A stretch of 64,000 bases of DNA from Escherichia phage vB_EcoM_ESCO32 (OM386658.1); one strand, 5' to 3'. Shown: positions 9,429 to 64,000, counted from the stretch's first letter. Notes: a model not told the origin generated them from the sequence alone. Numbers and translations are program-made.

Positions 9429-9526
9429 ATAAGACTAAAATCACTTAAAAAGAACCGCTAGAGTTTGAAGGAGAAAACCATGAGCGAAAAGAGAAATTTT
9501 CTCTAGCGATTCCATTTAAATAATCT

Positions 9527-9601
9527 TGGAGCGAGTAACAGGACTTGAACCTGCACCTGGAGGGTGGAAACCTCATATGCTACCATTAACACTATACCCG
9601 C
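9527..9601 (-). tRNA. tRNA-Gly(TCC)
   Basis: Acceptor GCGGGTA/TACTCGC, anticodon loop TTTCCAC, T-arm GCAGG-TTCAAGT-CCTGT, CCA. Confidence 0.55.
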
Positions 9602-9656
9602 TTAACAATATTACTCTAACATATTATTAGCCCCTTTGTCAAGAGGCTTTTAATAT

Positions 9657-9980
9657 TTATTTTAAAATAGTAGATGCACCACGTCTATTTAGATATGCAA
9701 CCGTAAAGCTCAAATCACCTATTTCTTCAGGTTCCCACTGACCTTCTAAGCCATAACAAGAACAATGATATGCGTGTACTTCATAAAACAAAGATGTTTT
9801 CATATCATAGAAATAAACGTGAGATTCGCCTTCATAATATGCACAATCATAAGTGGCAGAAAGAATTACAATGTTATCCTTATCTAACTCTACTTCATAA
9901 TATCTTTCAACATCTTCAATATCATCAAAACCATCGAAAACATTGATATTAAAATATTTCTCTAACTCTTTTTCTGTCAC
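9657..9980 (-). CDS. hypothetical protein (Cys/Tyr-rich)
   Basis: ORF track; N-terminus trimmed to GTG after AAAGGAG because longer ORF overlaps tRNA-Thr. Confidence 0.35.
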   Translation of the reverse strand: MTEKELEKYFNINVFDGFDDIEDVERYYEVELDKDNIVILSATYDCAYYEGESHVYFYDMKTSLFYEVHAYHCSCYGLEGQWEPEEIGDLSFTVAYLNRRGASTILK

Positions 9981-10002
9981 ATACACTCCTTTAGAGTTAA
10001 AT

Positions 10003-10076
10003 TGGTGCTCCCACAAGGACTCGAACCCTGATAAGTTGCTTACAAGGCAACCGTAATAGCCGTTATACGATAGGAG
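10003..10076 (-). tRNA. tRNA-Thr(TGT)
   Basis: Acceptor GCTCCTA/TGGGAGC, anticodon arm GTTGC-CTTGTAA-GCAAC, T-arm CAGGG-TTCGAGT-CCTTG, CCA. Confidence 0.6.
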
Positions 10077-10156
10077 CAAAATATTTGCTTGGTAGGATTT
10101 GATACCTACAATTCTAGAAAATTCTAGAGGTTTCTATTAACTCTACAAGCACTATT

Positions 10157-10241
10157 TGGCGATGGATCAAGGATTTGAACCTTGCTAGAACTTTCGTTCA
10201 CGGATTAACAGTCCGTCGCCCAACCACTAGGCCAATCCATC
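10157..10241 (-). tRNA. tRNA-Asn(GTT)-like with extra long variable arm (atypical)
   Basis: Anticodon arm ACGGA-CTGTTAA-TCCGT (Asn-like), then GAAC-GAAA-GTTC extra hairpin, T-arm CAAGG-TTCAAAT-CCTTG, acceptor GATGGAT/ATCCATC, CCA. Confidence 0.4.
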
Positions 10242-10248
10242 TTTAATT

Positions 10249-10335
10249 TGGTGCAGGTAGTTGGACTCGAACCAACGAAGCCCCGAAGGGCAGGAGATTT
10301 ACAGTCTCCAGCAATTGCCGCTATGCGATACCTAC
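10249..10335 (-). tRNA. tRNA-Tyr(GTA), type II
   Basis: Acceptor GTAGGTA/TACCTGC, anticodon arm GGAGA-CTGTAAA-TCTCC, long variable arm, T-arm GTTGG-TTCGAGT-CCAAC, CCA. Confidence 0.6.
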
Positions 10336-10340
10336 GTGTT

Positions 10341-10416
10341 TGGTACATCGTGAAGGATTCGAACCTTCGACCTTGGAGTTAAAAGCCCCTTGCTCTACCA
10401 ACTAAGCTAACGATGT
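10341..10416 (-). tRNA. tRNA-Lys(TTT)
   Basis: Acceptor ACATCGT/ACGATGT, D-arm GCTT-AGTTGGTA-GAGC, anticodon loop CTTTTAA, T-arm GAAGG-TTCGAAT-CCTTC, CCA. Confidence 0.65.
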
Positions 10417-10586
10417 ATAAATTATCTTTAAAATAGCCAGTGTTCGCACCACTGACTATGAGGTATCGGTAAGATGGTGGGGGCCATCTGCCGAAAGTCT
10501 ACTCTATTAAAGTAAGATGGTTGCAGCCATCCTTCCAAAAAGTTACACCAAGCAACTAAGAGTAACAAGCTACATTAAAGATAACT

Positions 10587-10672
10587 TGGCGGTAGATGTA
10601 GGACTTGAACCTACACGCCGTTTCCGACGACAGTTTAGCAAACTGTTGTGGCTACCATTTCACCAATCTACC
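10587..10672 (-). tRNA. tRNA-Ser(GCT), type II
   Basis: Acceptor GGTAGAT/ATCTACC, anticodon arm ACAGT-TTGCTAA-ACTGT, long variable arm, T-arm GTAGG-TTCAAGT-CCTAC, CCA. Confidence 0.6.
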
Positions 10673-10680
10673 GTTCTTAA

Positions 10681-10833
10681 TTATTCAAAACAACCGGAAT
10701 CTTTTTGTTCTGTTTTTACCATACGAATATTCTTACCATCTTCAGATTGTTGAAGATTAGAATACTCATAAACAACTTTATTATTTACAATCTTAACTCC
10801 GGTAACAACCTGTCCAATAGTTTTATAATTCAT
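10681..10833 (-). CDS. hypothetical small protein (about 50 aa)
   Basis: ORF track trimmed to internal ATG (MNYKTIGQ...) preceded by AGGAGC; sits between tRNA genes. Confidence 0.3.
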   Translation of the reverse strand: MNYKTIGQVVTGVKIVNNKVVYEYSNLQQSEDGKNIRMVKTEQKDSGCFE

Positions 10834-10851
10834 AAAGCTCCTAAGAGAATT

Positions 10852-10941
10852 TGGAGGAAGATAATGGAGTCGAACCATCACCGTATCGCTACAATGGGCC
10901 AGGGTTCAAACCTGGTTGCGCACCGCTGCGCCCTACCTTCC
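10852..10941 (-). tRNA. tRNA-Ser(TGA), type II
   Basis: Acceptor GGAAGGT/ATCTTCC, anticodon arm CCAGG-TTTGAAC-CCTGG, long variable arm, T-arm GATGG-TTCGACT-CCATT, CCA. Confidence 0.55.
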
Positions 10942-11004
10942 TGTTACCATACTTTAAATCTAACATAAAACTATCTTGCTTGTCAAGTAGTTTTTAAAAC
11001 TTTT

Positions 11005-11086
11005 TGGCCGGGGTGACAGGATTCGAACCTGCATACTCCAATTACTCGGTTAACGCCTGATTAGAAGTCAGGTGAGATACACCCCG
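11005..11086 (-). tRNA. tRNA-Arg(TCT)-like element with atypical architecture
   Basis: Acceptor CGGGGTG/CACCCCG, anticodon arm CCTGA-CTTCTAA-TCAGG, T-arm GCAGG-TTCGAAT-CCTGT, CCA; but only 5 nt where the D-arm should be and a 23-nt segment between anticodon and T arms. Confidence 0.35.
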
Positions 11087-11267
11087 TTTTCATAATGACT
11101 ATAACAAAAAACTAAGTAAATGTCAAGATATTTTTTACTAAAATTACTATTTAAATTGAAGCCTAGTTATGGAATCGAACCATATTTCGTATTTAGTTAG
11201 ACAAAGCGGTCTAACATATTTTTCAGGCTTTGATGGCCTCGGAATTACCAAATACCCTACTAGGTGT

Positions 11268-11353
11268 TGGTGCAAGTGGAGGGATTCGAACCCTCAAGCA
11301 TTTAAGCGTTGCGTTTTAAGCACAATGTGTATCACCAATTCCACCACACTTGC
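11268..11353 (-). tRNA. tRNA-Leu(TAA), type II
   Basis: Acceptor GCAAGTG/CACTTGC, anticodon arm TTGTG-CTTAAAA-CGCAA, long variable arm, T-arm GAGGG-TTCGAAT-CCCTC, CCA. Confidence 0.6.
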
Positions 11354-11384
11354 ATATAGGAGATGCATAGCACCTCCTTTTAAA

Positions 11385-11460
11385 TGGTGGTTCCCCAGGG
11401 TTACAATCCCTGCCCTCGACACTTATGAGGTGTGCGCTCTCGTCAGTGAGCTATGGAACC
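11385..11460 (-). tRNA. tRNA (CAT anticodon; Met or Ile2) with non-canonical T-loop
   Basis: Acceptor GGTTCCA/GGGAACC, D-arm GCTC-ACTGACGA-GAGC, anticodon loop CTCATAA, T-arm CAGGG-ATTGTAA-CCCTG (no TTC), CCA. Confidence 0.45.
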
Positions 11461-50797: not shown

Positions 50798-50836
50798 AAA
50801 AGCCCCTAGAAGCGATTCTAGGGGCTTTATTTTAGT
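50798..50836 (+). terminator. long hairpin (CCCCTAGA-loop-TCTAGGGG) plus T-tract at convergent block boundary
   Basis: Perfect 8-bp arms followed by CTTTATTTTA; lies between convergent plus and minus blocks. Confidence 0.55.
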
Positions 50837-51183: not shown

Positions 51184-51208
51184 CAAGAAAACCCGCCGAA
51201 GCGGGTTT
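51184..51208 (-). terminator. rho-independent terminator on minus strand (CCCGC-TTCG-GCGGG plus T-tract)
   Basis: Hairpin followed by TTTTCTT on the minus strand, downstream of 51214 gene. Confidence 0.5.
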
Positions 51209-58169: not shown

Positions 58170-58856
58170 TTATTTAACGTGTTTTAGCAATTCAATGTTG
58201 GCAGAATAGTTTTCACCACAATTAGTAACGCTCAACAGTGACCATTTACAAGAGAATACACCTTTTAGATGATCTGGAACACACATCAGCGGAACATAAA
58301 CTGTTTCTGAATCTTCTGTTTGCTCTGTTTTGTTAACATTGCAACAAAATGGCAATACATCATCATGAATCATTTTACATTCACTCAAATTATCTAACAT
58401 ATGTGAAACTTGTTCTGAAGTTTCAAACATTTGTGCTTCACAAGCCAGCGCACCAACCACTTGATAAGCCTCTCCACACAAATCTTCTAGTTCTAAAATA
58501 CGTTCAGACATAGCTTCGATGATTGCTGATCGTGCTTCCACCTTAGTTTCTGCTTCTTTAATTTTCTTCTCAAGTTCTGCAATGTACTTCAGTAGCGCAC
58601 TAACAACATCTTGAGTATTTTCTTGGTCATCTTGGGAAATTTTTACCAAAGAAGAAGCTGCTTTGCAACGTACTTTAGGTTCTACATAACCAAAAGTCAT
58701 ATTTTCCGAAGAAGATTGTTGTGAAAACCAGTGTTTGTTCGAAGAAAACACAGGTTCATCTTCAAACCAGAACACATCTCCAGTGATATCACGAGCCATG
58801 AAATTTGCATTGTCTGGAACTTCGTAACGATGCCCTTCAAACATAATCTCTTTCAT
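58170..58856 (-). CDS. hypothetical protein with central coiled coil
   Basis: ORF track. Confidence 0.35.
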   Translation of the reverse strand: MKEIMFEGHRYEVPDNANFMARDITGDVFWFEDEPVFSSNKHWFSQQSSSENMTFGYVEPKVRCKAASSLVKISQDDQENTQDVVSALLKYIAELEKKIKEAETKVEARSAIIEAMSERILELEDLCGEAYQVVGALACEAQMFETSEQVSHMLDNLSECKMIHDDVLPFCCNVNKTEQTEDSETVYVPLMCVPDHLKGVFSCKWSLLSVTNCGENYSANIELLKHVK

Positions 58857-59440
58857 TACACATCCTCCATTTGGAACATCTCTTTGTGGTTAGAATAGAT
58901 CTGTTTGAAAATCTTGTCAAGGCGTTCATATGATTCTTTATGCTCTTGTTTCCATCCATGATTTCGGATTTTATCTGCCAAATCATAAGCCTCGCATAAA
59001 ACTTTGGCAAAGTTGGTATTATCTATAGCACAAGCCTCAAAACCTTGAACTAAACCCTCTACATCATACCATGTATAGTCAGAGTCACTAGGAGTCTTTC
59101 CTGCATCGGCTAAACGTTGCCTCACCCATTCGATACGTTTTTCATTCAAATGGCACTTACCTTCTCTACACTCTTGTTCTAATTCTTCTTTAGATTCATT
59201 GAATGGGTGAAGGACAGGTAGCTCTGCTTTTTGCAATTGCTCCAGATATTCTCCTACAATGCGCATAGCTTCACTGTGTGTACACTTTCTACCTGTGTGC
59301 CAGTAACGGAAGATACTTTCTGTTAAACAGATGTTTTTACTAAACATCGCATTATCTTTAACATTCGATCTATTAACCCAGTCTATATAATATACATAAA
59401 ACTGCAATAATTCATAACTGCTTGGTATAATTTTACTCAT
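58856..59440 (-). CDS. Cys-rich paralogous-family protein (member A, extended)
   Basis: Shares LLQFY..W, LHPFN, RIEWVRQRL motif pattern with 60064, 62356 and 62714 ORFs. Confidence 0.4.
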   Translation of the reverse strand: MSKIIPSSYELLQFYVYYIDWVNRSNVKDNAMFSKNICLTESIFRYWHTGRKCTHSEAMRIVGEYLEQLQKAELPVLHPFNESKEELEQECREGKCHLNEKRIEWVRQRLADAGKTPSDSDYTWYDVEGLVQGFEACAIDNTNFAKVLCEAYDLADKIRNHGWKQEHKESYERLDKIFKQIYSNHKEMFQMEDV

Positions 59441-59618
59441 AACCTCTCCTTAATTGTGAAAAATGTTATCGATCAGTATGACTAGTAGTACGAGGACAGA
59501 AGGGAGCAGGAATAGAAATCTTAACATTATGTGATGCGTGTGAGAAGCGGCTTTAGCGCCAGCCGCCAATAAGCCTACTAATCCTACAATAAAGAGCAGT
59601 TGTTCAGGGACACCCATA

Positions 59619-59843
59619 TTATGGAACACTTGGATACTCCGTAAGTTTGGCTAATAGTTGGATATGTGGACACGTAAACTGTTGTCCTGGATAGCGTGAG
59701 CTAATGTCATCCAGTAAAGCAATCACAGCATTGTGCAATGCTTCGTAATCCTCATAATACACCATCTCTCCATTAGGATCTTCAACAATATCACAGTGAC
59801 AAGCGTGAGCAGTACACGCATCCCATTCCAGACGTTTTACCAT
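59619..59843 (-). CDS. hypothetical Cys/His-rich protein
   Basis: ORF track. Confidence 0.3.
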   Translation of the reverse strand: MVKRLEWDACTAHACHCDIVEDPNGEMVYYEDYEALHNAVIALLDDISSRYPGQQFTCPHIQLLAKLTEYPSVP

Positions 59844-59852
59844 AAACCCTCC

Positions 59853-60071
59853 TTACTCATACATTTGATAAGATACATAACGATTGCAATCAAGTGCGAG
59901 AAACTTTTCAGCATCTCTTTGATGCTTGAACACAATACACTGTTCTTTTTTAGCTGCACTTTCACGAGCTTCTCTTGCCATATACTCACCTAAACGAATG
60001 ATACTAGAGAATAACACGTATGCAAGAATAAGACAAATAGTGATTGCACAGAAAGTTTTAAACTTAACCAT
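59853..60071 (-). CDS. small membrane-anchored protein, paralog of 55135..55359
   Basis: N-terminal TM FKTFCAITICLILAYVLF; conserved C-I-x-x-K-H...AE-x-FL...C motif. Confidence 0.4.
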   Translation of the reverse strand: MVKFKTFCAITICLILAYVLFSSIIRLGEYMAREARESAAKKEQCIVFKHQRDAEKFLALDCNRYVSYQMYE

Positions 60072-60432
60072 TGTATTCCTCCATATCACGAATACGATCA
60101 ATCACCCATTGTACACGTTCTTTATTAAGGTGTGCAATGCCTAACTCTGTTTCCGTAAAGTAATGTGAGAAATCTGTATTAAATGGGTGTAAATGGTTCA
60201 AACCCGCTTTCTTAAACTGTTCCTTCATTTCCTCTCGTACAGAGGACTGGAGGTTTGCTACATTCTCAACATCTTTTATCCAAGCAATATTGTACAAGAA
60301 GTCTACAAGACACGTGCAAAGACCATAATGCTTTTTGCTAAAGTTTGTATCTTCTTGTTCTAACCACCACTCATAAAATTGTAGCAAATAGGGGCTGCTT
60401 TTCATGTTACACACTTTATTATTTTCTTGCAT
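60064..60432 (-). CDS. Cys-rich paralogous-family protein (member B)
   Basis: LLQFYEWW, GLCTCLVDFL, HLHPFN, RVQWVIDRI. Confidence 0.45.
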   Translation of the reverse strand: MQENNKVCNMKSSPYLLQFYEWWLEQEDTNFSKKHYGLCTCLVDFLYNIAWIKDVENVANLQSSVREEMKEQFKKAGLNHLHPFNTDFSHYFTETELGIAHLNKERVQWVIDRIRDMEEYNG

Positions 60433-60441
60433 GGCTTCTCC

Positions 60442-60741
60442 TTAATGCCAATCTACGATCACTGAATCTACAAAACCCTCTTTGGTGTTTAAAGCATACA
60501 CCTTACTAAGCCCACGCTCTCGTAGTGCTTCCATAGCAAGATCAATCAAATCAACTTGGCGTTTCCTTGCTTGTTCATTTGTCGGATAGTCATCCAAACC
60601 GAAAACAGATGGTTTAAATGCTTTGGAGTATTTACCAGTTTTAGCCTGATCATAACAGTCCTGAATAACTTCATCAATAGGAAACCATAAACCTTCCCCG
60701 CTTTGCTTTGCAATACAGCGCAGTTTTTCTGTAACAGTCAT
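60442..60741 (-). CDS. hypothetical protein
   Basis: ORF track. Confidence 0.3.
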   Translation of the reverse strand: MTVTEKLRCIAKQSGEGLWFPIDEVIQDCYDQAKTGKYSKAFKPSVFGLDDYPTNEQARKRQVDLIDLAMEALRERGLSKVYALNTKEGFVDSVIVDWH

Positions 60742-60950
60742 TCTTCCTCTCCTTTCAATTTATACTCAAAGATACCATTCTTAATGTTATCTGTCAAATA
60801 AAGGTTATCTTCTATCTCTTCTTTTGTATACACATAAGCCTCCTTTTCCACGTCTGTCAGACCTTGCATCGGAGCTAGTAGCCACCAGCCCCGCCAGTCA
60901 AACATAGGAGACTTATCAGATACACGAAGAATGTATCTGGCATTACACAT
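60738..60950 (-). CDS. hypothetical protein
   Basis: ORF track. Confidence 0.3.
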   Translation of the reverse strand: MCNARYILRVSDKSPMFDWRGWWLLAPMQGLTDVEKEAYVYTKEEIEDNLYLTDNIKNGIFEYKLKGEEE

Positions 60951-60953
60951 ATA

Positions 60954-61406
60954 TTATACGATGTTCACACTAATATCTGCAACACCAACAAGAGAATAGA
61001 CTTCAACTACACTCTGTGTACGATCCAGCTTGTAACGTTTCGCCTCTTTTTCAACTTCCTCACGGGAGATGGTTTCCATGATCGGAACTCCATCCACTAC
61101 AAGCAGGTATTTCTCTTCGTGTTTACTTTTTGGTGCTTCCTCTAAGACTTCTACAAAATACTCAAACTCACTTTTTGCAAGCAACGTGTAACACTGAAGA
61201 AAGTCTCCTTCATTTTGAGCGATAATTTCTTGTTCTCCTGCTAAGGATTGCAAAGCAGTGACACCATACCAATCATCCACATCTAATACACGAAAATAGG
61301 AATCACCTAAAAAAGAAGCAATCCTGCTATTACACTCAGACATGTTAGCAAACTTACGGATATAAGATGGGTTTTTAAAACGATACACTTTACCAATTTC
61401 AAACAT
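60954..61406 (-). CDS. hypothetical protein
   Basis: ORF track. Confidence 0.35.
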   Translation of the reverse strand: MFEIGKVYRFKNPSYIRKFANMSECNSRIASFLGDSYFRVLDVDDWYGVTALQSLAGEQEIIAQNEGDFLQCYTLLAKSEFEYFVEVLEEAPKSKHEEKYLLVVDGVPIMETISREEVEKEAKRYKLDRTQSVVEVYSLVGVADISVNIV

Positions 61407-61609
61407 TACACAAATCCTTATTGTTCAAGAGTAAAAGGAATGATTTCACTATAGCTGTATTGCATGGCATTCACTTCTGCTTCTGCACGTTGTGCTAGTT
61501 CTAATGTTGCACAGATCTTGTAAGGTACAGTGCTGCATTGGCTCCAGCCTGGGGTATTCTTTGTTACTAAGTACACAGTAGTTTGTTTATCCATCTTCTT
61601 TTCCTCTCT

Positions 61610-61870
61610 TTAAACAGTATATTCGTGTGGAAGGAAAACATAATCTTCTCCTTCAACAACATCAACTACTTCCCACTTCCAGCCAGGTACTTGGCTCATT
61701 GTCTTGAATGACACATAAGCAACTCCGCTGTAAGCGATATCGGCATCTAATATAAGAGGGAAAGCAACGTGTGTCAACCCCAGATAACCACAATTATTTT
61801 CAATACACACCTGAATGCTTTTCATGTTATGCTCCATTAAAGACGGGGCGTGTAGCATTACGTTCATCAT
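61610..61870 (-). CDS. hypothetical protein
   Basis: ORF track. Confidence 0.3.
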   Translation of the reverse strand: MMNVMLHAPSLMEHNMKSIQVCIENNCGYLGLTHVAFPLILDADIAYSGVAYVSFKTMSQVPGWKWEVVDVVEGEDYVFLPHEYTV

Positions 61871-62285
61871 TCACTGTAATAAGGTTTTTCATAACCATAA
61901 CACCCTGAATATAGCCTAGCCAACGATGGCGTTTGGTTTCAGACATACCATTACTCCCATCCTGAATTTCACTCAACATCCACAGTAAGTGGGGAACACC
62001 TGTTTCACTGGTATCTGGATCTTCTACAGAACTAAGAATCGTTTCATAGCGTTCACAAATTTCTGGGTAGAATTCATAATCCTGTTGTACATCTCGCATT
62101 TCTCGAATGAAGTGACGAGCAATAGGCTTCCCACGAAAATATTCATTGATGAAATCAATAACACACATCTCGCTGCCTGTCACCACGGAAGGCGTTCCTA
62201 TGTTAAATTGAACACTCACACCGCATTCTTTTACAAGATTATGTACACGCTCCGTGTTAGCAAGATACAAAGATACAGTTTTCAT
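61827..62285 (-). CDS. hypothetical protein
   Basis: ORF track. Confidence 0.35.
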   Translation of the reverse strand: MKTVSLYLANTERVHNLVKECGVSVQFNIGTPSVVTGSEMCVIDFINEYFRGKPIARHFIREMRDVQQDYEFYPEICERYETILSSVEDPDTSETGVPHLLWMLSEIQDGSNGMSETKRHRWLGYIQGVMVMKNLITVNDERNATRPVFNGA

Positions 62286-62355
62286 TTACACCTCTCATTA
62301 GTAGTTTGTTATGCGCGATATTGCATATTTTATGGAACACAGTGTACAGGCATTT

Positions 62356-62724
62356 CTATTCAATGCAAGCATTATTTGCATCTTCGATTCTGTCTTTCAC
62401 CCATTGAAGACGTAACGTGTTGGTATGACACGCCAAGTCTATACACTCTGAAAGGTAATCCATGCAATCTGCATTGAACGGAAGATTGTAGTCCAGTCCT
62501 GCACATGTAAATTGTTTCCTCATTTCGTATTTCAAACTATCCAACAAACGATCACGCCATCTTTTATCTTCTTCTCTAGTTACCTCACCAACAAAATCAT
62601 CTACATAATCTACCAGACAACCACATAAGCCACTCGTTGTGCGATTCATTGCAGGATGGTTGGCAATCCATGCTTTATAGAATCGTATTAAAGCTGCACT
62701 ACTCAACGGAATATTACTTTTCAT
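62356..62724 (-). CDS. Cys-rich paralogous-family protein (member C)
   Basis: LIRFYKAW, GLCGCLVDYV, FTCAGLDYNLPFNAD, HTNTLRLQWVKDRI. Confidence 0.45.
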   Translation of the reverse strand: MKSNIPLSSAALIRFYKAWIANHPAMNRTTSGLCGCLVDYVDDFVGEVTREEDKRWRDRLLDSLKYEMRKQFTCAGLDYNLPFNADCMDYLSECIDLACHTNTLRLQWVKDRIEDANNACIE

Positions 62725-63148
62725 TATTACCCCCTAACACCAAACATGAATCGGCAATACGATCTTTCACCCACTGCAATCTCCCTGGGTTAGTATGGCA
62801 AGAATGTTTCTTACCTTCATCTTCATAACACAGAAGGTCATCATTAAAGGGCAGGAAGGAGGATAGCCCAGCACACGTGAATTGCAATTTCATCTCTTCT
62901 AGCGTTTTACTACGAACCATCTTGAAATGTTCTATATCTTCTTGCGTAGGTTTTTTCTTTGACATAGTGGTTGCCAGATAATCCATAAGGCAAATACACA
63001 AACCAACATTCTCACGATGCATTGAGGAATGATCTTCCATCCATGCTTTGTAAAATTCTAACAGCAGTGGACTGCTAAGAGGAACACACATATCAGACTC
63101 CTTTATAAATTTACGTTTCATGCCACACATCATACAGCATCTTTTCAT
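62714..63148 (-). CDS. Cys-rich paralogous-family protein (member D)
   Basis: LLEFYKAW, GLCICLMDYL, FTCAGLSSFLPFNDD, HTNPGRLQWVKDRI; closest to member C. Confidence 0.45.
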   Translation of the reverse strand: MKRCCMMCGMKRKFIKESDMCVPLSSPLLLEFYKAWMEDHSSMHRENVGLCICLMDYLATTMSKKKPTQEDIEHFKMVRSKTLEEMKLQFTCAGLSSFLPFNDDLLCYEDEGKKHSCHTNPGRLQWVKDRIADSCLVLGGNNEK

Positions 63149-63464
63149 CTATTACAAGAACAGCAACATAGAAACATCATTAATGGAGGGCTTAGTATAG
63201 GAATTAGTATAGGTATTCCCTATCAATTATTCTATATATACCTATTATTTTTAACACACCCCTTTGTACATAATATAGACAAATAAATATCTATGCCACA
63301 AAAATTTTCCGGTATACCCGATTTATTTCGACACACCCTTTTTCATAAGCGTAAAGTCAATAATATCAATAACTTGCCGCAAAATACTGCTCGCTTGCGA
63401 GAGGTGCTTAACGCGATTTTCAGCGCCCCCCGATTTCTGCCGACCGTCCCCCTCAAATATCAAT

Positions 63465-63483
63465 GAGAATAATTATCATTTGC
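63465..63483 (+). promoter_or_regulatory. Fur-box-like palindrome (GAGAATAATTATCATTTGC)
   Basis: 14 of 19 positions match the Fur consensus GATAATGATAATCATTATC; part of a ~20-bp direct repeat. Confidence 0.3.
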
Positions 63484-63658
63484 ATTATCATTCAATGACT
63501 TATAAGACTTTTGATTATTTTCTGAGCAAGAAAGGTACTACTCACAACAAAACAGATAAATTCTAAGTAAATCAATGGCTTGGCAAGTCTAAACATCTAT
63601 ATACACCTTGCCAAATGAAATGATCTGGCGTGAAATAGTGCCACCCGTGGAAGATAAC

Positions 63659-63678
63659 TGATAATGATTATCATTTGC
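63659..63678 (+). promoter_or_regulatory. Fur-box-like palindrome (GATAATGATTATCATTTGC)
   Basis: 16 of 19 positions match the Fur consensus; second copy of the repeat. Confidence 0.35.
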
Positions 63679-64000
63679 ATACTTTCTGTACTATAAAACC
63701 GACTAAAAATCAAGATAATTCTGATTTATTGCGCTTTTAAGAAAGTAGGCTCAACAAATAGGGGAATACATTGCAACAAATGAGGTATGTTATAGGGGCA
63801 ATAGTATGAAAAATCATCTATTCAGATAAAATAATTTTGCGCAATAGTGGCAATATTTTTCTTGACAAGAAAGATTTCTTTGTGTTCACATAGCGCCCCC
63901 TGGAGGGTGGCGCATTATGATCATCAGTGTCATTATTCATTTCAGTGTTATTATTCACCATGTTTATTATATGCAGCTTATATTATAGCCAATGTTCTAA

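Follow-up and report, generated by a model that had tools for sequence, protein, structure and literature searches.

A 64,000-nucleotide (nt) stretch of Escherichia phage vB_EcoM_ESCO32 (OM386658.1), referred to below as the window, carries four small related genes, here called A, B, C and D, whose products belong to a large phage protein family that includes gp3 of the model phage N4. The family is best described as a new, structurally distinct one among the known kind of early accessory phage proteins. The four proteins are tentatively regarded as dispensable, immediate-early cytoplasmic binders that would neutralise a host component, probably in counter-defence; we infer such an anti-defence or host-modulating role from gene position, dispensability and evolutionary dynamics.

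The four paralogous genes

All coordinates given here are positions in the window. The phage belongs to the genus Justusliebigvirus (Stephanstirmvirinae) and is a phi92-like myovirus of E. coli; over the 6 kb surrounding the four genes it is 96–97% identical to phages outra, Eryne, Paula and others, and the annotation of vB_EcoM_ESCO32 contains the exact A, B, C and D proteins. The four open reading frames (ORFs) singled out in an earlier note, which had been made from the bare sequence, are all there on the minus strand: A at 58856–59440 (194 amino acids, aa), B at 60064–60432 (122 aa), C at 62356–62724 (122 aa), and D, whose longest ORF spans 62714–63148 (144 aa). In mutual BLASTP comparisons, C and D match with an expect value (E) of 4.8e-33 and 46% identity, B and D with 4.8e-26, and B and C with 1.8e-20; with A as the partner the values are 2.3e-11 for B, 2e-8 for C and 2.6e-8 for D. 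All four proteins also match phrog_2510 (A 1.9e-17, B 1.5e-25, C 4.1e-24, D 4.5e-21), and a hidden Markov model (HMM) of the four proteins, run against the six-frame translation of the window, recovered only these four and no fifth copy, the next match standing at E ~1. It can be seen that pairwise values of 2e-8 to 5e-33 and the profile result lie far beyond chance, which disposes of the concern that the shared motifs might not be statistically significant and indicates that A, B, C and D are true paralogs, as had been proposed. B, C and D contain the whole of the ordered motif set ascribed to all four, but in A it is degenerate and reads FYVYYIDW, NICLTE, AELPVLHPFNES and HLNEKRIEWVRQRL.

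The position of D stood in part only. The ORF reaching to 63148 exists, but the start most likely lies at 63091, so that the gene would occupy 62714–63091, because the sequence AAGGAG is found 7 nt upstream of the in-frame ATG at 63091, a Shine-Dalgarno sequence is missing before the ATG at 63148, and a 125-aa D product is annotated in five phages (ESCO32, Paula, PATM, KMB37 and tuntematon). Canonical Shine-Dalgarno sequences precede A, B and C (AAGGAG for B and GGGGG for C), and D from 63091 begins with MCVPLSS..., parallel to the start of C, MKSNIPLSS.... The cysteine-containing N-terminal 19 residues of the longest D ORF are probably untranslated. The 3' end of D overlaps the start of C by 11 nt and holds the ribosome-binding site of C; more generally, the genes of the block are co-directional and tightly packed, with gaps of -44 to +15 nt plus one 70-nt gap after C.

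The ratio of nonsynonymous to synonymous substitution rates (dN/dS) is 0.09–0.11 for A, 0.06–0.10 for B, 0.17–0.42 for C and 0.24 for D (D compared with Eryne). Such values show that all four are functional genes under purifying selection, with the tip pair D/C evolving faster. No hydrophobic segment compatible with a membrane helix was found in any of the four proteins, which are mildly acidic (the family median isoelectric point, pI, is 5.2); the A–D proteins are expected to be soluble and cytoplasmic.

Family membership, size and distribution

A wide family HMM used in a six-frame scan detected the four window ORFs at E 4e-27 to 1e-43 and N4 gp3 at 1.4e-21. As a protein alone, N4 gp3 (ABK54374) is a full-length member, matched over residues 6–103 of 104 at E 4e-24; its gene lies at 1214–1528 of the N4 genome as the third gene of the N4 early region, and it is the sole gene common to that region and the 64-kb window. 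N4 gp3 is a true homologue of A–D that has the GLC, PFN, Y..E and H-x-N-x-x-R-x-x-W motifs in common with them; it differs in being a single copy of 104 aa without the insertion between helices 2 and 3, whereas the present phage carries four, and in one of these (A) a C-terminal extension is added. The phi92 gp006 protein, the orthologue of B, matches the family HMM at E 1.1e-46. The family domain of A matches phrog_27059, which A defines, at E 5e-140 and phrog_2510 at E 1.9e-17; phrog_6418 is matched more weakly, and all three PHROGs are listed as of unknown function. The 77-residue C-terminal extension is found only in A and not in B, C or D; by tblastn it occurs mainly in Justusliebigvirus-like genomes at 94–100% identity, with a few matches at 33–36% in Cronobacter phages and Escherichia phage AV124, and a search with it against a large protein database returned no candidates.

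To gauge the size of the family, 1.84 billion representatives of clusters formed at 50% identity were searched exhaustively with HMMER, and 882 proteins matched at E <=1e-3, 202 of them at E <=1e-10. Nearly all representatives are stand-alone proteins of 100–125 residues; the longer members P0034, P0036, P0048 and P0061 contain the same domain duplicated in tandem in one polypeptide, and the fusion partners are DUF551 (one member), PHROGs of unknown function, or a second copy of the domain. In addition, one 347-aa fused member, P0170, lies on a metagenome contig (ERZ1524536 NODE_152) that carries, among other small genes, a Macro-domain gene 1 kb downstream (L016 2115–2588). Macro domains reverse ADP-ribosylation, and this single instance is possibly a counter-defence neighbourhood.

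The distribution across related phages, which the earlier note had proposed to examine, is wide: tblastn with C found 491 places in 174 phage records, with hosts in Escherichia, Salmonella, Klebsiella, Pectobacterium, Pseudomonas, Acinetobacter, Rhizobium and Xanthomonas, and phages of Burkholderia and Delftia are among the structural neighbours of the family in BFVD. Genomes of Stephanstirmvirinae are multi-copy, with 2–13 tblastn matches to C per genome, and rV5-like phages, Drexlerviridae, N4-like phages and Pectobacterium, Rhizobium, Acinetobacter and Xanthomonas jumbo phages are mostly single-copy. The largest number, 13 matches in the whole genome, was observed in phage WPEC4, a 156-kb relative in which five members lie over 12 kb (L006 11965–23960) directly downstream of the ribonucleotide reductase genes. 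Plasmids gave one weak match only, a scan of bacterial genomes with a narrow peptide pattern gave one 367-bp (base pair) fragment, and the sampled metagenomic neighbourhoods are blocks of small unannotated genes; the family is apparently phage-only. Meanwhile, P0237, a protein in the 90%-identity cluster of N4 gp3, was deposited as a Dyella japonica DSM 16301 protein on a 481-bp contig, and this record is probably N4-like phage contamination of the assembly.

The motifs had been noted as not belonging to a named domain, and this was confirmed across Pfam, NCBIfam, PADLOC and the PDB, at the level of both sequence and fold. None of A–D matches Pfam, NCBIfam or PADLOC above curated cut-offs (best in Pfam and NCBIfam 12–15 bits vs 22–130), no Pfam family is matched by more than one of 108 diverse members, and PDB sequences are matched neither by the single proteins nor by a deep profile, even at E up to 10. 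DREPP, ATG11, Crl, TenA and Cas12d appeared in the curated-library searches as sub-threshold noise. For instance, Crl (PF07417 / NF008217) was matched by B only, at 13.0 bits (cut-off 27) and 14.9 bits (cut-off 117), and by 1 of 108 members, and the all-alpha family fold also speaks against it. The literature search found nothing on the function of N4 gp3, phi92 gp006, phi92 gp010 or the PHROG, and the "gp006" of a paper on bNACHT11 (PMC11702601) is T2 gp006, unrelated to the family. The family is thus large and catalogued yet uncharacterised, N4 gp3 included.

Position at the genome end

Positions 1–556 of phi92 align to window 63751–63199 at 97.8%, and the left direct terminal repeat (DTR-L) of phi92 is annotated at 1–343; the physical left genome end should therefore lie at about window 63751. 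By synteny with phi92, D and C are placed as the first two genes behind the left terminal repeat, and homologues of phi92 gp001–gp012 follow, with B as gp006 and A as gp010. Similarly, Phapecoctavirus records starting from the genome end list the C-type gene as gp001 or gp002 (ESCO5, Schickermooser). It has been reported that the N4 early region, which contains gp3, is transcribed by the injected virion RNA polymerase (PMC4496689). The placement of the family in an early or leading-end region thus agrees with both the phi92 synteny and the location of N4 gp3.

Upstream of the first family gene there is a leader block, which is 76–77% identical to AV126 and anhysbys where the flanks are unalignable and which has many invariant columns. 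It holds a weak sigma-70-like site, TTAAAA-17-AATAAT (63254–63226), and is a candidate early promoter or regulatory element.

T7 gp0.3 (Ocr) is the first-expressed anti-restriction protein at the leading end of the T7 genome, and D/C may be likened to it in position and logic only, as each is small, acidic, dispensable and encoded first behind a terminal repeat at the early-gene end. The family is unlike Ocr in that it has no sequence or fold similarity to solved structures, anti-restriction proteins included; at a pI of ~5.2 it is only mildly acidic and not a DNA mimic by composition, and it is multi-copy. T4 Arn (PDB 3WX4) is likewise a small early phage protein, and the one database label suggestive of an anti-defence role is "Anti-restriction nuclease", given in a bacterial assembly to P0213, which is related to C at the level of 90% clusters. 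A comparison with Arn by hhalign gave a probability of 0.1% and E 0.48 over 8 aligned columns, and 3WX4 is not among the fold matches, so the label on P0213 is unsupported. The other solved anti-defence proteins compared (Ocr, ArdA, anti-CRISPRs, Acb2, Tad1/2 and others) showed no sequence or fold similarity to the family. Atd1, an anti-defence gene reported for these genera, is one that we take to encode a MazG-like enzyme and thus to be a different gene.

Turnover of the D/C slot among near-identical phages

Slot alleles were compared among genomes with flanks at least 95% identical, and it was found that the D/C slot has at least five structural alleles. In the first, both D and C are present, as in the present window, Paula and outra, and also in Eryne, where D and C are separated by an insertion of 145 bp that carries a small-ORF annotation (L001 7996–8166). 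In the second, seen in KKE7M and Antha, a single hybrid gene joins the 5' part of D to the 3' part of C at the junction 62763|62406; the metagenomic protein P0002 resembles the same kind of D/C hybrid. The third, in muut, has C only. In the fourth, neither gene is present: phi92 is without 63198–62407 and alia (MN850632) without 63102–62385, two independent deletions that differ in their breakpoints, and phi92 keeps a relic, window 62406–62331, which includes the last ~50 nt of C. In the fifth, in 92CQ (L013 1002–1554), D is truncated at the C-terminus and C is a decayed pseudogene, frameshifted and internally deleted. Only 20 of the 126 matching records cover the slot to at least 80%, and records under one phage name may differ, with 62200–63760 covered to 100% in alia OZ035770 vs 50% in MN850632 and to 68% in VEcB OZ035773 vs 39% in MT932211.

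The muut allele has a leader and an N-terminus of the Phapecoctavirus type, a sign that cassettes have been exchanged between genera, with the leader and the 3' end, both conserved, as the sites of exchange; consistent with this, the C-terminal tail DRIEDANNACIE is exact in 17 of 26 members whose identity is otherwise at most ~50%. Judged from these natural alleles, D and C are dispensable, and the slot expands, contracts, hybridises and swaps cassettes by recombination at conserved flanks. The repeated diversification suggested in the earlier note is borne out by the number of slot alleles and by the up to 13 tblastn matches to C per genome. An analogy can be drawn with poxviruses, whose terminal host-range families expand and contract, e.g. 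K3L: in these "genomic accordions", as in the D/C slot, terminus-adjacent paralogous accessory genes expand, contract and recombine. The two differ in that the viruses are other ones and the proteins unrelated, and the evidence for D/C consists of natural alleles and is comparative.

Five records labelled "Campylobacter phage" (MG065645, MG065689, MG065639, MG065656 and MG065650; host Campylobacter jejuni) also match the region, four of them at 96.7% identity over 6 kb and the fifth (B15) at 92.5% to the C gene. Their Campylobacter host and organism labels look wrong, perhaps through contamination or mislabelling.

Predicted structure and hypervariable segments

The structure prediction that had been called for gave a confident all-alpha model of C. 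This AlphaFold2 model, from a 25-sequence alignment, has a predicted local distance difference test score (pLDDT) of 92.7 and a predicted template modelling score (pTM) of 0.85, with five helices at residues 10–20, 33–45, 51–74, 87–95 and 103–121. The model of A (pLDDT 72.5) shows the same five-helix order in its first 115 residues, with helices at 9–23, 39–50, 55–71, 84–93 and 100–112, and the A extension is modelled as three helices at low confidence (pLDDT 52–69). The structural neighbours of C in BFVD are family members from other phages, with template modelling (TM) scores of 0.6–0.75, and fold comparison with solved structures, peptidases and anti-restriction proteins included, gave no match. 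The models thus predict for the family a compact five-helix domain of ~110 residues with a fold that has no solved analogue.

Mean column entropy was calculated over 26 Stephanstirmvirinae-type members. Two segments of C are hypervariable (Table 1), and the scaffold segments of C-type members have 0.7–1.0 bits. Segment 1 differs in length across the family, positions 46–60 being mostly gaps in distant members, and segment 2 is bracketed by the invariant PFN and N-x-x-R-x-x-WV (P82, F83, N102, R105).

Conserved residues and the cysteine question

Conservation was assessed over 108–121 diverged members that are 28–47% identical to C, and residues are numbered as in C. Four positions are invariant, namely Y16, P82, F83 and R105, and thirteen others are at least 90% conserved among 108 diverse members (S9, L12, F15, G32, L33, C34, E67, Q71, F72, L77, N102, W108 and V109). 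B, C and D retain every position conserved to at least 90%; in A, the GLC and AGL motifs are degenerate. The motif order of the family is L..FY..W, GLC, EM..QF..AGL, PF(N), Y..E and (H)xNxxRxxWV.

The family had been described as Cys-rich, and one explanation of A–D is accordingly a Cys-rich zinc domain in which a metal would be chelated by the CxC motif together with the C-H pair that precedes the last helix. C and D do have CxC and CH motifs and contain 5.6% Cys, and the commonest family pattern at positions 34, 36, 93, 99, 100 and 102 is C-N-E-C-H-N. On the other hand, the only Cys conserved family-wide is C34 (92% of 121 members); at position 36, the second Cys of CxC, 60% of members have Asn and 12% have Cys; C99 is present in 51% and H100 in 72%, and no more than 35 of 121 members combine C34, C99 and H100. 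The candidate metal ligands of B are C39, C41 and H100 only, A is without the first Cys of CxC, and the cysteines at the N-terminus of the longest D ORF probably lie outside the translated gene. The Cys content is 3.1% in A and 2.5% in B, against a family median of 2.7%. The description Cys-rich does not hold for the family and is a local trait of C and D; since only one Cys is conserved family-wide, neither a conserved zinc site nor a universal Cys-His dyad is supported, and a zinc domain for the family as a whole is largely refuted, which leaves this explanation very improbable.

The conserved polar residues share helix faces with hydrophobic stripes, and they may form a semi-buried network or pocket. 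This bears on another explanation, in which A–D are sponges or small enzymes: the polar and aromatic cluster would receive a ligand of the nucleotide type (for instance an alarmone or a second messenger of immunity) in a pocket, with the neighbouring hypervariable segment 2 tuning ligand specificity and the paralogs covering different ligands. The invariant R105, W108, Y16, N102, Q71 and E67, together with R112 (63%), are of the kinds common in base stacking and phosphate binding, they are conserved far beyond the rest of the protein, and the invariant motifs named above directly flank segment 2. Acb2, Tad1 and Tad2 sponges bind nucleotides via conserved aromatic and basic residues, with which the invariant R, W, Y, N and Q of the family would be compatible; they are also, like the family, small and widespread, and the family further resembles known sponges in its broad occurrence across virulent phages and in its tandem duplications. 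The family is unlike Acb2, Tad1 and Tad2 in having no structural match to any solved protein. For an enzyme, C34, H100 and N102 could in principle form a Cys-His-Asn triad whose Cys lies at the N-terminal end of a helix, but H100 is conserved in just 72% and C34 occurs with H100 in 79 of 121 members, and a papain-like Cys-His-Asn hydrolase was rejected on these counts and for want of a peptidase fold match. In addition, the polar residues sit, to judge from helix positions, on hydrophobic-core helix faces, where they may be inter-helix salt bridges instead. A sponge or small enzyme is therefore regarded as unlikely.

The last helix, with N-x-x-R-x-x-WV-x-x-R, could also be read as a recognition helix, which would make the proteins phage-directed DNA- or RNA-binding regulators of the early-to-middle switch. 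The proteins are acidic, as the family median pI given above shows, and a regulator of an essential switch would not usually be dispensable and vary in copy number as D and C do; this explanation is considered quite improbable.

Weighing of the functional readings

In the tentatively favoured reading, the A–D proteins would be made immediately after DNA entry; their action would not be catalytic, and they would neutralise a host component by binding to it. The scaffold, including a semi-buried cluster of polar and aromatic residues (Y16, C34, E67, Q71, P82–F83, N102, R105 and W108), would represent the fold itself or a common docking site, and the two hypervariable segments would set target specificity. 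The most likely targets would be variable host immunity components, with A and B, conserved in the genus, covering constant targets, and C and D covering strain-specific ones. With variable immune targets, the retention of several diverged copies would be understandable, as would the turnover of the tip copies between near-identical phages.

Several observations weigh against this counter-defence reading. Over ~880 diverged clusters, polar residues are near-invariant (R105 99–100%, E67/Q71 94%, C34 92% and N102 88%); such invariance across alpha-, beta- and gamma-proteobacterial phages is unusual for a pure protein–protein inhibitor of variable immune proteins and is more readily reconciled with a ligand or target that is itself conserved, or with a catalytic centre. 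A and B are strongly constrained and fixed in the genus, which is more like a core host-takeover function. The early expression of A–D is deduced from position, that is, from synteny and the parallel with N4, since a promoter scan of the window, in which the leader site is included, did not rise above shuffled controls (56 found vs 49 expected), and a transcriptome of a family-carrying phage, N4 included, was not found in the literature. Finally, none of the analyses connected a family member with a defence system or with a target in the host.

A further explanation is general host takeover, according to which the family binds one conserved proteobacterial housekeeping component and the paralogs are sub-functionalised without a part in counter-defence; RNA polymerase or a sigma factor, the RNA degradosome, a nucleoid protein and the replication/recombination machinery are examples of such targets. 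It agrees with the conservation of ~17 positions at 90% or more, polar ones included, across the three proteobacterial classes, with the fixation of A and B in the genus at a dN/dS of ~0.1, and with the occurrence of the family only in phages of Proteobacteria; moreover, N4 gp3 adjoins gp1 and gp2, the cofactors of N4 middle transcription (PMC4496689). A single conserved target, however, leaves the 2–13 diverged copies per genome and the rapid D/C turnover unexplained, phi92 and alia manage without D and C, and the Crl-like matches are noise (13–15 bits against the cut-offs of 27 and 117, in 1 of 108 members). General takeover is consequently held to be rather unlikely, though the zinc-domain and phage-directed regulator explanations are less likely than either takeover or a sponge or small enzyme. 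As for the family as a whole, it is possible, if doubtful, that the N4 gp3-like proteins are a new-fold and very widespread class of counter-defence, either protein inhibitors or immune-signal sponges, in which the conserved core would dock a common ligand or partner, the two hypervariable segments would set specificity, and in Stephanstirmvirinae a copy "accordion" driven by recombination would adjust the repertoire at the genome tip, which would be the DNA expressed first.

Features and neighbouring genes

The features of the four genes and of the genome end are collected in Table 1.

Table 1. Coordinates of the family genes, their segments and the genome-end features in the window
Feature	Coordinates	Strand	Description
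Paralog A, C-terminal extension	58856–59089	-	Residues 118–194 and stop; acidic, pI 4.7
Paralog A, family domain	59090–59440	-	Residues 1–117; most divergent member; phi92 gp010 orthologue
Paralog B	60064–60432	-	122 aa; phi92 gp006 orthologue; conserved gene of the genus
Paralog C	62356–62724	-	122 aa; canonical member; second gene behind the terminal repeat, by synteny
Conserved 3' end of C	62356–62406	-	Encodes ...QWVKDRIEDANNACIE; recombination junction, C part of the hybrids, phi92 relic
Hypervariable segment 2 of C	62413–62472	-	Residues 85–104: helix 4 and following loop; 1.72 bits
Hypervariable segment 1 of C	62536–62613	-	Residues 38–63: end of helix 2, loop, first half of helix 3; 2.15 bits
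Paralog D	62714–63091	-	125 aa from the most likely start; first gene behind the left terminal repeat, by synteny; HMM E 1e-62
Homologous 3' end of D	62714–62763	-	Partner junction for D/C hybrids; breakpoint 62763 in KKE7M, Antha and 92CQ
Leader block	63201–63293	-	Upstream of the first family gene; conserved in Justusliebigvirus and Phapecoctavirus
Equivalent of phi92 left direct terminal repeat	63409–63751		63751 corresponds to phi92 position 1, the physical left end

The neighbouring genes in the window are all "unknown" in PHROG. Two small hydrophobic ORFs are located near A and B, namely 59450–59629 (-) just upstream of A, with 59 aa and the sequence MFHNMGVPEQLLFIVGLVGLLAAGAKA..., and 59853–60101 (-) downstream of B, with 82 aa including ...FCAITICLILAYVLFSSII...; the phi92 homologue, gp009, has a predicted signal peptide, and they are possibly membrane proteins interleaved with the family members. 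The homologue of phi92 gp003 at 60954–61406 (-), with 150 aa, matches phrog_3710; its residues 8–71 weakly match phrog_2980, "goF mRNA metabolism modulator" (E 9e-7), and in phage Eryne it carries the goF annotation.

Further from the four genes, strong terminator-like hairpins at 50799–50828 (+), with 13 pairs, and at 51208–51189 (-), with 8 pairs, stand at the inner boundary of the leftward small-gene block. The guanine–cytosine (GC) skew changes sign near 14–16 kb and near 50 kb, and the change at 50 kb coincides with the hairpins and marks the switch in gene orientation. ARAGORN detected a cluster of 15 transfer RNA (tRNA) genes at 8713–11460 (-), namely Ile, Met x2, Leu x2, Phe, Pro, Gln, Gly, Thr, Asn, Tyr, Lys and Ser x2.

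Significance

The alia and VEcB record pairs are natural near-isogenic pairs that differ in the D/C slot, and the same can be said of phi92 and the present phage. The slot also shows how phages diversify accessory genes when recombination takes place at a leader on one side and a gene 3' end on the other, both of them conserved. N4 gp3 is a single-copy member in a genetically tractable model phage, and the carriers of the family include, besides N4, E. coli phages that are therapeutic candidates. If the reading favoured here is true, A–D would belong to a large uncharacterised counter-defence or takeover family of ~880 clusters in virulent phages of many Proteobacteria.

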